A stretch of DNA of 64,000 bases from a virus (lineage: Duplodnaviria; Caudoviricetes), in the IMG/VR virus record IMGVR_UViG_3300037453_000168, positions 1 to 64,000 of that record; one strand, given 5' to 3'. A program made the position numbers and the translations under genes. Shown piece by piece: positions 41,703 to 46,661 of this stretch. The notes under the pieces were generated by a model. It saw only the letters and a list, made by a program, of their open reading frames with translations. It was not told where the DNA came from and did not search any database. Position 1 is the first letter of the stretch, and each line of letters starts with the position of its first letter.

Positions 41703-42200
41703 ATGCCTAAATCGTATAAGACCGACGAATTACAGGAGTATCTTCAATCCAAGAAGGGATTGAACGAGATTACCGAGCAGTCCCGTAGCGGTAAGACCCT
41801 CGCAGAGATATCCGAGCATTTCGGGATTGCCCGTACCACACTATACACATGGTCCAAGAAATATCCTGAGATTCAATCGGCATTATCCGAGGGAAAGCAC
41901 GTTGCGGATGACCGTGTGGAGCAATCCCTGTACGAATCCTGTTTCGGACGTACCGAGAAGGAGGTCACGGTGGAGAAGGACAGGGACGGCAATGTGATTA
42001 AATCCATAGTCCGCACCCGTTACATCCCTCCGAACATCACGGCAATCCAATATTGGTTATCTAATCGTCGCAACGACACATGGAAGGCAAGACAGCAGTT
42101 GGAGTTCGCACCCGATACCAAACTGCCTGTGATGTTCGTAGAGGATATACCAAACCCGTTCATCAAGAAAGATGTCGAAGAAAAAGACGCATCCGAATGA
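41703..42200 (+). CDS. terS: Terminase small subunit
   Basis: HTH..TLYTWSKKYPEI..VEQSLY..PPNITAIQYWLSNR; directly upstream of TerL. Confidence 0.85.
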   Translation: MPKSYKTDELQEYLQSKKGLNEITEQSRSGKTLAEISEHFGIARTTLYTWSKKYPEIQSALSEGKHVADDRVEQSLYESCFGRTEKEVTVEKDRDGNVIKSIVRTRYIPPNITAIQYWLSNRRNDTWKARQQLEFAPDTKLPVMFVEDIPNPFIKKDVEEKDASE

Positions 42201-43569
42201 CCTCGAAAGCGAGAACGCATTGGAAGTGCCACAGTTCAGGCAATTCAACATATCAAAGCTGATAGGTCAGGGTTATGACGAGTACTGGTGGTGGCACGGC
42301 AGATATGCGGTATGCAAGGGCAGTCGTGCCAGCAAGAAGTCGTTCACAACAGCGTATTGGATAATACTCAATATGATGAAATACCCCCTTGCGAACACGC
42401 TCGTGGTCCGCAAGGTTTCGGGTACTAACAAGGACTCCACATTCGCTCTGTTGATGCAGATTATATACTCGCTCGGTCTGGATGACGAATGGTACGCTCA
42501 TATATCCCCTTTGGAGATAATATGCCGTAAGACCCATCAGAAGATTCTGTTCAGGGGACTGGACGAACCTCAGAAACTATCGTCCATAACCGTGGAGAGA
42601 GGGGTCCTATGCTGGATGTGGGTGGAGGAGGCATATCAGATTACCAACGAGGCCGATTTCGACATTGTCGACCAGTCGATACGCGGTCAGATGCCAGAGG
42701 GATATTTCCCACACATAATGATTACATTCAATCCTTGGCACAGGGAACATTGGCTCAAAAGAAGGTTCTTCGATACCCCGAACAAGGAGACCCTTGCCAT
42801 GACTACGAACTATCTGATAAACGAGTTCATATCTGATTTCGATAAGAGCTATTTCGAGGATTTGAAAGAACGCAATCCCCGTCTATATCAGGTCGCTGGA
42901 TTGGGGGATTGGGGAGTGTCCGAGGGTCTGATTTATTCCGATTGGGAGGAAAGGGAGTTCGATGTGGGCGAGATTATGAAACGCAACACCGTTCTCGCCC
43001 TGTTCGGGCTGGATTTCGGATTCACAGACCCGACAGCATTCGTCGCTCTGATGCTCGATACCGCAACCCGTACAATATACGTCTATGACGAATGGTATCA
43101 GACAGGAGTGCATAACATAGATATCGCCAACAAATTGAAGGAAATGGGGTATCAGAACGAGCGTATCGTATGCGATTCGGCACAGCCTGAGTCGATATAC
43201 GAATTGCAGACCCTTGGTCTTTCCAGAGTCACAGGTGCGATAAAAGGTCAAGATTCGGTAGAGTGGGGCATCCAGAAATGCCAGCAGTACCATGTCGTGA
43301 TTCTTCCCAAATGCGTCAATTTCCTCACAGAGATTTCGATGTATGCCTATGACCAGGACCGCATGGGTAAATTGATGAACAGGCCCTGTCATGATTTCAG
43401 CCACGGCATGGATGCTTGGAGATATGCCGTATCCGAGATGCTGTATCGTACAGGACAGATAGAAGGGCTGGTTATCGGGCCGAAGGAAGATGCTCAATCA
43501 ACGGTGTATCAAAGGAACAGGGCGGAATCAGAGCATCCAGAGGAATTTGTATCCAAATATGTATTTTAA
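42172..43569 (+). CDS. terL: Terminase large subunit (PBSX-like)
   Basis: KGSRASKKS, WVEEA, TFNP, GLDFGFTDP, HGMDAWRYA. Confidence 0.93.
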   Translation: MSKKKTHPNDLESENALEVPQFRQFNISKLIGQGYDEYWWWHGRYAVCKGSRASKKSFTTAYWIILNMMKYPLANTLVVRKVSGTNKDSTFALLMQIIYSLGLDDEWYAHISPLEIICRKTHQKILFRGLDEPQKLSSITVERGVLCWMWVEEAYQITNEADFDIVDQSIRGQMPEGYFPHIMITFNPWHREHWLKRRFFDTPNKETLAMTTNYLINEFISDFDKSYFEDLKERNPRLYQVAGLGDWGVSEGLIYSDWEEREFDVGEIMKRNTVLALFGLDFGFTDPTAFVALMLDTATRTIYVYDEWYQTGVHNIDIANKLKEMGYQNERIVCDSAQPESIYELQTLGLSRVTGAIKGQDSVEWGIQKCQQYHVVILPKCVNFLTEISMYAYDQDRMGKLMNRPCHDFSHGMDAWRYAVSEMLYRTGQIEGLVIGPKEDAQSTVYQRNRAESEHPEEFVSKYVF

Positions 43570-43714: not shown

Positions 43715-45490
43715 ATGGATTGTCGAGGTATGCTATCCACCACACATCTGTCGAAATCGAAGAATAAGCCGAAATCGTCAGAGGTCGCATCGCCCAATCT
43801 TCCGAAGAGCGTCATGGGTCTTTCGACCGCTGAATCATTCGATAAGGGTGTGGTGCAAGAGGTGGAAGTGGTCGGAAGACCATCGAACATCATCTGGAGA
43901 TTGAATAACCGTTCGTTCTGGTGGCAATTCTATTCCCTTATGGATTTCTACCGTTCCGAGGTATCAATACTCGACACCATCATCTCTCGTTCCGTGACCG
44001 AGATATTCAGATACGGGATAGATTTCGAGCCTGCGTTCGTAGTCAAATGTGTGGATTGCGGTAACGAATATCAGAACAACGTGAAGGTATGCCCCTACTG
44101 CAACTCCACGAGATTGGTAAAGCCAGAGGAAAAGCAGAAGGATTATTTCGTCAGACCTGACGGCACATCGTTCCTCGAAGAATGCAACGAGAACCAGCAA
44201 TCCCTCAAAGACCTGTGCAGAATGTATGCCGAATCCCAATACCAGAACAATCAGGCATATCTTCTCGTAATAACAGGTGATGTGATTGACAATGAGACCA
44301 AGCAGTTGAAACATTCCTATCCGTTGGAATTCATCTGCATCGACCCTAAATTCGTCCGTTATCTGTATGACGAGCATGCCGAGCCAGGAGAGTTATATGG
44401 GTTCACAATGAACGACAGACGCACTCTGATTACCCTACCTCATGACGGGGATTTGGTCACTACGACACCAGACGGGGAGGTAATCTATCCAGCATACTGG
44501 CAGGTCGGAGACTCCTTCGGTGCTGGCGGACCGTATATATCGTACACGAAGGACGAGATATACCAGAACCATTGGTTCAGGCAGTCCATGACCTACGGGA
44601 TACCCCATTGGCTCTCAATCGAGGACGATTTGCTCACCTATCATTACATCGAGAAACATAACCTGAAGAAATACAAGTACGGATACGTCCGTAAGATTGT
44701 GGTTCTCCCAGGATACGATGTGAATGTAATCAAGGATGTAGCACAGGGGATACAGAACGTTCTGGCGAAGAACGACAACTCCGTTCCGATAGTCGGATTA
44801 CCGCCAGCACCCCCAGGCACGAGTCCACAGCCAGCATCCACCCTCGAAATGGGTGCGGAATCGGGTTCAGACCTCATACAGACCAAGAACGACATCCGTG
44901 ACAGGCTATGCGCCCATGCTGGTGTCCCCAATCTGTTCGCTGGCGACGTGGAGAACGGCGGAGGACTCAACAACGAGTCACAGCAGATTACGACCTTCGA
45001 CCGTTATCTAATGGACAAATATGATTACACGGATGATATGCTGGATTGGATTCTTTCGTGGTTCCCCAAGATTACGGATTGGAAACTGAGAGTCAAAAGA
45101 CCCTCAAAGGCCGACCAAGCCAATAAGCAACTTCAAGAGGAAATCCAGATTGCACAGGGCATGAAGAACCTCGGATTCCAAATCACATACACCAACGGAG
45201 AGTTCACATACTCCGAGAAACCCGTCGATATGGGCATGGGGATGGGCGGAATGGGCGGAGGTATGGACCCTGCGCAGAACACGGATATAGGATTCAGAGG
45301 CATGCTTGGGGCTGGCGGACTCGGTAACGATACCGAGCAGATGGATACGAAAGGAGAGGTCGGAGAATATGAGGACGATGCCTATCAGCAGTACCAAGCA
45401 TCCAAGGATGCAAAGCTAAGGAAGGCTGGTAGTTCCTTTCGCCTATCTCAAGGGGACCTCAGAAGAGCAATATCTCAAATACATCGGTAA
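43715..45490 (+). CDS. Portal protein (with CxxC..CxxC insertion)
   Basis: Position after TerL; size; RDRLCAHAGVPNLFAGD..GLNNE portal-like wing motif. Confidence 0.8.
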   Translation: MDCRGMLSTTHLSKSKNKPKSSEVASPNLPKSVMGLSTAESFDKGVVQEVEVVGRPSNIIWRLNNRSFWWQFYSLMDFYRSEVSILDTIISRSVTEIFRYGIDFEPAFVVKCVDCGNEYQNNVKVCPYCNSTRLVKPEEKQKDYFVRPDGTSFLEECNENQQSLKDLCRMYAESQYQNNQAYLLVITGDVIDNETKQLKHSYPLEFICIDPKFVRYLYDEHAEPGELYGFTMNDRRTLITLPHDGDLVTTTPDGEVIYPAYWQVGDSFGAGGPYISYTKDEIYQNHWFRQSMTYGIPHWLSIEDDLLTYHYIEKHNLKKYKYGYVRKIVVLPGYDVNVIKDVAQGIQNVLAKNDNSVPIVGLPPAPPGTSPQPASTLEMGAESGSDLIQTKNDIRDRLCAHAGVPNLFAGDVENGGGLNNESQQITTFDRYLMDKYDYTDDMLDWILSWFPKITDWKLRVKRPSKADQANKQLQEEIQIAQGMKNLGFQITYTNGEFTYSEKPVDMGMGMGGMGGGMDPAQNTDIGFRGMLGAGGLGNDTEQMDTKGEVGEYEDDAYQQYQASKDAKLRKAGSSFRLSQGDLRRAISQIHR

Positions 45491-46661
45491 GGATGTCTAC
45501 GGATTCCTCCGCAATCACAAGGAGGACATCGCCCAAGTCCTCGCAGTCGGATTCGATGTTGCAGATACGATACTGCCCAACGGCACGCATCCGTTCGTCG
45601 ATATGACCTTCGATGAGGTCAAGGAGATGTACATCGGTATGATTGAGGTATTGCAGAAACCCCAATGGTCGGTGCAGGAGATTAGGGACGTAGTTTACAA
45701 TTCATGCGCCAAGTACCGTGATGCGGAGAGAGGGGATGCCGAGATACGTAACATGGTCAAGCGTATCGCTCAGACCGAGATGAACCGCATACTTTTCTAT
45801 GCGAAGGAGCAGGAGGCCATCGAGTCGGGAGCGACGGATTCATACTTCATCTGGGCTGGCCCGATAGACAGGCGCATGACCCCTATGTGCCGTTTCCTGC
45901 AAACGGGGGAATTGAAAGGGGAGAACAACAGGGGCGAACCTTACGATTACGAGGAACTCCGTAGCGAACTCCCCGAATGGAGGGAGGAAGGATGGACTCT
46001 GCCCGAATTGAAGGTGATTTGCCGTCAGGTGCATGATGTGTTCTATGCTCACGATGTGGTCAAGACCCCGATGCTATCCGATTGGCAGATGCACATAAAC
46101 TGCCGTCACACGTTCGGATACTCGATGAAAGCACCCAAGCTCGATGCACCGATAGAGGTCGATGGATGGATACAGGTGGATAACGCACAGGAATCGCCTG
46201 CAAGCGACGAGAAACCCCCCGAATATGTAGGCATACCTCCATCGTTGCAAACCCCCTCAGAACCGAAGGAATACGCTTGGGATGGACCGTTGCAGATTGA
46301 GTTCGTAGGGGATGCCGTCATGCAAGCCGACGATACCGATGACATAGACATCTTCGAGACGCCTTTGGCTCAATACACGTTCGGGATAGAGCATCCTATG
46401 AGGAACGTACCCCTGTTCATACTTCCCGAATCGACGGAGAACGACGAATCCGCCATCTTCCAATTCTCCACCGTGAACGAGTTCCAGTTGGGCTCATGGC
46501 TCAGATTCGTCATAGAGGAATTGGATGCTGGATTGGATATGCCTGTGATAGTGGATGTGCTGAACAGCGAATCGGGTATGACCTATCAGGAGATAGGATA
46601 CATACAGAGACATTGGGATTGGCTGTTCGACGTCGCCCTCGATATGGGATGGATACTATGA
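45441..46661 (+). CDS. MuF/SPP1 gp7-like head morphogenesis domain; frame open from 45420 but first ATG at 45603 with no SD
   Basis: IWAGPIDRRMTPMC..HINCRH motif; coding-like upstream extension reachable by a +1 shift from portal. Confidence 0.75.
   Translation, partial: AYLKGTSEEQYLKYIGKDVYGFLRNHKEDIAQVLAVGFDVADTILPNGTHPFVDMTFDEVKEMYIGMIEVLQKPQWSVQEIRDVVYNSCAKYRDAERGDAEIRNMVKRIAQTEMNRILFYAKEQEAIESGATDSYFIWAGPIDRRMTPMCRFLQTGELKGENNRGEPYDYEELRSELPEWREEGWTLPELKVICRQVHDVFYAHDVVKTPMLSDWQMHINCRHTFGYSMKAPKLDAPIEVDGWIQVDNAQESPASDEKPPEYVGIPPSLQTPSEPKEYAWDGPLQIEFVGDAVMQADDTDDIDIFETPLAQYTFGIEHPMRNVPLFILPESTENDESAIFQFSTVNEFQLGSWLRFVIEELDAGLDMPVIVDVLNSESGMTYQEIGYIQRHWDWLFDVALDMGWIL

Follow-up and report, generated by a model that had tools for sequence, protein, structure and literature searches.

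A candidate UCC_UUU_CGC +1 frameshift site predicted to join the portal to a start-less MuF-like frame in a tailed virus of a probable archaeal host

We analysed a 64,000-nucleotide (nt) stretch of viral DNA, hereafter the window, that makes up positions 1 to 64,000 of a 78.9-kb linear IMG/VR record (IMGVR_UViG_3300037453_000168). On its plus strand, the 3' end of a portal gene overlaps the frame of a MuF-like minor head protein, and the nonamer TCC TTT CGC lies within the overlap (Table 1). An earlier note on this DNA had stated that the MuF frame opens at 45420 and offers no start until an ATG at 45603 that lacks a Shine-Dalgarno sequence, and had placed the nonamer in the portal frame; the sequence reads so on both counts. 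The +1 frame is open over 45420-46661, and between its preceding stop codon and the nonamer it holds not one ATG, GTG or TTG. From the nonamer to the ATG there are 54 codons, and no purine-rich stretch precedes that ATG. A +1 shift at the nonamer is predicted to produce a fusion of 575 + 406 = 981 amino acids (aa). The stored gene call for the portal is 558 aa long and starts 33 codons past the first ATG (43814 vs 43715).

Table 1. Features at the portal/MuF junction, in window coordinates
Feature	Position	Strand	Description
Portal gene, 0 frame	43715..45490	+	591 codons counted from the first ATG; ends with TAA
TAA stop of the MuF frame	45417..45419	+	six codons ahead of TTC
Purine-rich Shine-Dalgarno-like stretch, then CTG GTA in the MuF frame	45419..45431	+	
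Candidate +1 shift site TCC TTT CGC	45434..45442	+	portal-frame codons for the E, P and A sites
3' stretch with raised synonymous-site conservation	45438..45470	+	first 11 MuF-frame codons
MuF-like frame past the predicted shift	45441..46661	+	406 codons plus stop
0-frame tail of the unshifted portal	45443..45490	+	15 codons past the Arg codon, then TAA; rare codons; length varies in relatives
Earliest canonical start of the MuF frame, ATG	45603..45605	+	inside conserved protein

The upstream protein matches the PHROG portal family (3e-6), is 44% identical to the annotated portal of the 83-kb Methanomassiliicoccales virus vir335, and has 171 portal homologs; its match to Pfam Phage_portal was sub-threshold. 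Pfam and PHROGs gave no name to the downstream protein of the window, and searches of its frame against the phage collection, by DNA and by protein, returned no matches. Among six relatives, five had sub-threshold matches to Phage_Mu_F (PF04233), in the same profile region and at 15-19 bits against a cut-off of 29.6. An AlphaFold model of the downstream protein, with a mean predicted local distance difference test score (pLDDT) of 68, matched in BFVD the folds of head-morphogenesis proteins, of a GpF-like protein and of 786-829 aa 'portal proteins' from haloarchaeal tailed viruses (E 3e-6 to 7e-4), and a fold search of the PDB found nothing. We call the protein MuF-like by its predicted fold, its gene position directly after the portal and the sub-threshold Pfam matches, and not by a Pfam call. 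Two further traits of these proteins were seen. Residues 111-129 of the portal (44045-44101) form a four-Cys zinc-ribbon insert, unusual for a portal protein, which gave weak matches to Pfam Zn_Ribbon and HypA and whose Cys 112, 115, 126 and 129 are invariant in an alignment of ten portals, fusions included. The C-terminal third of the MuF-like protein (46281-46661, residues 310-413) is modelled as a small strand-plus-helix domain with pLDDT 80-90, and a disordered linker parts it from the MuF core.

The earlier note had proposed looking for the motif in relatives with the same gene arrangement, and there it is retained without exception. We compared 14 distinct, DNA-verified split loci with MuF at +1 (the window, L001, L003, L005, L006, L013, L014, L015, L010, L011, L028, L002/L009, L008 and L012, the last covering just the 3' part of the portal gene). 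These were assembled independently, with sources in ENA, JGI, Logan and NCBI, and several protein clusters of relatives comprise 29-35 member sequences. At the junction, where the conserved MuF-frame sequence begins, all 14 carry TTT CGN in frame with the portal. The codon ahead of TTT is TCC in 11 loci and ACC, CGC and TCG in one each, and L010 carries the exact influenza nonamer UCC_UUU_CGU. At the protein level, a Phe-Arg junction also ends seven further portal homologs. TTT is invariant at the site although it is the rare Phe codon (13% of Phe, see below). All four bases (C, T, G, A) occur at the last position of CGN, so that the +1-frame residue next to Phe is Ala, Val, Gly or Asp. Since this base varies and the +1 residue is not conserved, the constraint appears to act on the 0-frame CGN codon rather than on the MuF protein.

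What follows the site in the 0 frame is not maintained. The 0-frame tails are 0, 0, 0, 7, 14, 15 (four loci), 25 (three loci), 176 and 278 codons long, the two longest in L010 and L011, and they therefore hold no conserved peptide. In the distant clade of L002, L008 and L012 (~31% protein identity), the site precedes the acidic linker and is placed ~50 residues closer to the N-terminus of the colinear product; the sequence on either side is unrelated to that at the other loci, and a 0-frame stop directly follows CGN. This recurrence bears on whether the split is an artefact of assembly, with a plain fusion gene misread by 1 nt, or a sign of recent gene decay. Plain portal-MuF fusions do occur in relatives. 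Nevertheless, 14 assemblies made independently, by different pipelines and from different samples, share the +1 layout and the motif, and clusters have up to 35 members; both frames are intact and conserved, and a run of three T is an untypical source of indel errors. Error or decay is hardly credible as an explanation.

We next consider where the MuF protein begins. In an alignment with homologs of the extended MuF frame, of which 19 were found, the 54 codons upstream of ATG 45603 aligned with clear conservation in about ten, down to 29% overall identity, and the conserved MuF-frame protein sequence starts at the site. Over the 100 codons past the site, pairwise differences among seven close relatives numbered 572, 375 and 1105 at MuF-frame codon positions 1, 2 and 3, so that third positions vary most. 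Annotated MuF starts are scattered over five positions among the homologs, as is expected of gene callers that have no good start codon to choose. One could still suppose that MuF starts at ATG 45603, the first canonical start of the frame, with the upstream codons as untranslated remnants and the motif as a coincidence; cluster P0003 (344 aa) even begins still further downstream. However, conserved protein sequence surrounds this ATG, which is therefore unlikely to mark the true N-terminus. At least ten homologs share the protein sequence of the 54 codons, which show the third-position excess just described, no Shine-Dalgarno-like sequence precedes the ATG, and its Met is not conserved in homologs. 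We regard a start at ATG 45603 as extremely unlikely. One effect on annotation is that the MuF-like genes of this family are called with truncated N-termini, and the portals with meaningless tails of up to 278 residues.

Nucleotide changes are also suppressed directly downstream of the site. In the close clade, the fraction of synonymous differences was 0.16 over the first 11 codons past the site, 0.37 over the next 11 and ~0.52 beyond, and the suppressed region spans about 30-60 nt on the 3' side. Either a stimulator on the 3' side or overlap with the coding sequence of the short 0-frame tail might explain the suppression. By eye, a purine-rich string, C-A/G-A-G-G-G, recurs in most +1 loci, mostly 3-6 nt past the Arg codon (window 45449-45455), and persists in the distant clade despite a differing encoded peptide; it may be a 3' context element. 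On the 5' side, the purine-rich stretch and the CTG GTA after it (45419-45431) may stimulate the shift, serve as a non-canonical start region, or merely encode a conserved Arg-Lys-Ala-Gly peptide in the portal frame. The purine-rich stretch together with CTG was tried as a prfB-like stimulator and rejected on spacing.

Codon usage was tallied over the 83 open reading frames (ORFs) of the window, about 19,000 codons. TTT makes up 13% of Phe codons. The 0-frame tail past the site does use atypical codons, as the earlier note had remarked (CTA, 7% of Leu; TCT, 11% of Ser; CGG, 6% of Arg). From the codon counts, an in-frame TTT CGN is expected ~1.2e-4 times per codon pair, or ~0.003 times in the 23-codon overlap. 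Apart from the pair at the junction, no in-frame pair falls within a credible gene of the window: the single further copy is in an ORF on the minus strand that is nested in a plus-strand ORF. Across the window, in-frame TTT CGN pairs are not significantly depleted (2 seen vs 2.3 expected), and the site heptamer is not enriched (6 copies vs 7.9 expected). Because the heptamer is not over-represented, its significance rests on its position and on its conservation in relatives.

In some relatives, the two coding regions are arranged differently. In L016 and L017, the MuF-like frame lies at -1 to the portal, and the junction is a canonical X_XXY_YYZ heptamer, C_CCU_UUC, in the correct frame. In L016, the MuF-frame stop stands one codon ahead of the heptamer, and a hairpin begins 7 nt downstream (z = -2.6; L017, z = -0.3). 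The portals P0039 and P0040 have the same tail type as L016 and L017. In eight further lineages (P0022-P0026, P0084, P0086 and P0092), portal and MuF are encoded by a single ORF of 910-1180 aa, and one of these proteins, P0022 (976 aa), is colinear block by block with the predicted trans-frame products of L010 and of the window (981 aa). In a portal-domain tree built with FastTree and read without support values, close relatives with +1, -1 and fused forms are intermingled. As far as can be read from these genomes, the predicted fused protein is the constant feature of the family, and the route by which it would be reached is what changes.

Portals without a MuF partner were seen as well. A sister portal clade at ~50% identity (L022-L027 and vir335, L032; contigs of 82-87 kb) has a conserved acidic tail at its end and a capsid-assembly gene next to the portal, with no MuF-like gene. 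P0084 and P0086 have the acidic-tail type of this clade, joined in frame to the MuF-like domain. A portal-alignment scan of viral contigs gave just this MuF-less clade, with a normal portal stop, and was uninformative on the site; a scan of genome contigs found no relative.

We consider it very likely that programmed +1 ribosomal frameshifting fuses the portal to the start-less MuF-like frame. The process would proceed as follows. Ribosomes translating the portal mRNA arrive at UCC_UUU_CGC, where UUU in the P site is paired with tRNA-Phe and CGC occupies the A site. In some of them, tRNA-Phe would re-pair from UUU (45437-45439) onto UUC (45438-45440), which is the fully cognate codon for its anticodon GAA, and decoding would restart in the +1 frame at GCC (45441). 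The expected product of ~981 aa comprises the entire portal, including its acidic tail, and a covalently attached MuF-like minor head protein. Unshifted ribosomes would append 16 residues (Arg plus 15) and stop, yielding plain portal subunits. The fusion would then place MuF domains at the procapsid's portal vertex, in a ratio that would be set by the efficiency of the shift. Sister viruses are predicted to make the same product through a -1 shift at C_CCU_UUC or through a plain in-frame fusion. The core of the earlier note, a UUU-to-UUC slip that joins portal to MuF, is thus supported by a motif kept in 14 of 14 loci and by colinear natural fusions. Its suggestion that the fusion is a minority product fares worse: because the 0 frame runs on for 176 and 278 codons past the site in two relatives, and eight lineages make only the fusion, the portal-MuF fusion may be the main product.

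A +1 and a -2 shift enter the same frame, and sequence alone cannot tell them apart; RNA polymerase slippage at the same place would be a further route. Polymerase slippage, however, requires long homopolymer runs and the site has three T, and the invariant UUU_C followed by CGN fits the documented +1 slip in the P site, with no tandem -2 slippery pattern. Recoding by one of these other routes is very unlikely, and even when it is pooled with the ATG 45603 start and the artefact, the three remain improbable.

Several points weigh against +1 frameshifting. CGN makes up 46% of the Arg codons of the window (CGC, 14%) and is not evidently rare, so that viral codon usage lends no support to a slow, or 'hungry', A-site codon. 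Around the +1 sites, neither a conserved RNA structure (z about 0, no covarying pairs) nor a well-spaced Shine-Dalgarno-like stimulator was found. Some of the conserved nucleotides would also be kept by dual coding alone. To our knowledge, UUU_CGN frameshifting is established on eukaryotic ribosomes only. In support of recoding, the stretch between the MuF-frame stop and the site is free of canonical starts in the window and in L013, L014 and L015; the other ten of the 14 loci, however, hold some canonical start in the open stretch upstream of the site, and independent initiation might take place in them. Finally, a [C/G]TG codon stands four codons before TTC in 11 loci (CTG in 8, GTG in 3), directly past the purine-rich stretch, and for P0009 and P0017 the GTG found there is the start that gene callers chose.

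The last two points would suit two genes without recoding, in which MuF is translated from a weak non-canonical start (CTG 45426, or the adjacent GTA/ATA) that overlaps the portal 3' end. Under such an arrangement, a low yield would suit a virion protein of few copies, and the conserved nucleotides would reflect dual coding. Yet CTG, which is no normal start, outnumbers GTG 8 to 3, and the purine-rich stretch lies 0-2 nt from the [C/G]TG codon, too close for Shine-Dalgarno contact, given the minimum spacing established from bacterial systems. The in-frame fusion L019 retains the same nucleotides with no need of a start, and there they encode a conserved Arg-Lys-Ala-Asp peptide. The distant clade has no [C/G]TG codon at that position, and in L016 the stop falls one codon before the site. 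Separate initiation also leaves the invariant TTT CGN with its free third base, the -1 heptamer and the in-frame fusions unexplained. We judge it improbable, and retain programmed +1 frameshifting as the explanation of the junction.

The host of the window virus is probably a member of the Methanomassiliicoccales, judging from its head proteins. The only viruses that its portal and capsid proteins match are assigned to Methanomassiliicoccales or Methanofastidiosa, and among 50,697 phage records the capsid protein matches just vir335 and one Methanofastidiosa virus. A Pfam scan of ten other large ORFs of the window gave no domain-of-life signal. One relative with a +1 site, L028 (GCA_045617945.1, 72-kb contig), sits in a 2.7-Mb genome bin with bacterial ribosomal protein L20, and the bin gave no match to archaeal S8e, mcrA or 16S. 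The contig is probably a mis-binned viral contig; alternatively, part of the virus family infects bacteria. The archaeal origin assumed in the earlier note is thus probable: the methanogen-virus matches of portal and capsid speak for it, and the bacterial markers in the bin of L028 speak against it. Ahead of the portal, the window encodes a large terminase of normal length (42172-43569, 465 aa), and in several relatives the large terminases carry Hint/intein domains in the precomputed Pfam list (L010:1-632, L015:1-721, L018:1-1366).

The closest parallels to the proposed slip are found in RNA viruses. UCC_UUU_CGU of influenza A PA-X and UUU_CGN of plant amalgaviruses are documented +1 sites, and a P-site slip from UUU to UUC with CGN in the A site is documented for PA-X and proposed for amalgaviruses (PMC4317690, PMC5052127); the parallel drawn in the earlier note agrees with this literature. 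The window junction shares with them an identical motif, a proposed P-site slip before an Arg CGN codon, the lack of obvious RNA structure and a start-less downstream ORF. It differs in that those are RNA viruses translated by eukaryotic ribosomes, whereas this is a tailed double-stranded DNA virus whose host is a prokaryote and probably an archaeon. A structural fusion would be made here, not a nuclease or polymerase, and CGN is not clearly rare in the window virus, unlike in the RNA-virus comparison.

Among prokaryotic systems, the +1 shift of bacterial prfB (RF2) takes place while a stop codon occupies the A site, with a Shine-Dalgarno sequence 3 nt ahead of the shift codon, and the capsid and tail genes of Listeria phage PSA also use +1 frameshifts. 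Like these, the proposed event is a +1 P-site slip on prokaryotic-type ribosomes, and the distant clade has a 0-frame stop one codon past the shift codon. Neither prfB element is in place in the window: a sense codon, CGC, occupies the A site, and 11 nt separate the end of the purine-rich stretch from TTT. The extension of a structural protein at its C-terminus in a fraction of copies is also seen in the lambda G/GT tail chaperones and in the MSTV1-like viruses of methanogens. In the latter, a -1 frameshift adds an Ig-like extension to the capsid protein, and one relative has fused the two parts directly instead (PMC11375127). This alternation of frameshift and direct fusion resembles that of the present family, in which L016 and L017 likewise carry a canonical -1 heptamer. 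In contrast to the -1 shifts of lambda G/GT and MSTV1, the shift in the window would be +1, with another motif and in another gene pair.

In SPP1, MuF/gp7-type proteins bind the portal non-covalently. Covalent joining is also known, as a 'portal and MuF-like fusion protein' of mycobacteriophages (PMC9584337, PMC9584339). Further examples are the single-ORF fusions of the present family and the 786-829 aa haloarchaeal 'portal proteins' to which the MuF-like model is similar. Such single-ORF fusions have the same end product as is predicted here, a portal followed by a MuF/gp7-like domain. They need no recoding and place MuF on every portal subunit, whereas the window virus would be expected to make two products in a set ratio.

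Portal-MuF fusion genes are therefore already known, as are frameshift extensions of structural proteins, including the -1 case in methanogen viruses. Our literature search found no paper on portal-MuF recoding, and none on UUU_CGN outside eukaryotic RNA viruses, that is, none for a prokaryotic virus, in line with the earlier note, which knew of no description of the motif in an archaeal virus. A 2021 review of recoding in archaea lists one proven -1 case and one merely suggested +1 case, in halovirus HSTV-2 (PMC8211752), and +1 programmed frameshifting is barely documented in archaea.

We lean towards a broader view of these observations. An influenza-type UCC_UUU_CGN would work on archaeal, or at least prokaryotic, ribosomes as a universal property of the decoding centre. 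CCUUUC would be a slip site that works both ways (C UUU C to +1, C CCU UUC to -1), and lineages would drift among +1, -1 and in-frame forms. If true, the UUU_CGN signal of influenza and plant RNA viruses would be extended to a third kind of ribosome, and the junction would offer a compact, testable cassette with which to study frame maintenance in archaea. For this virus family, programmed fusion of portal and MuF suggests how MuF/gp7-type proteins may reach the portal vertex in defined numbers.

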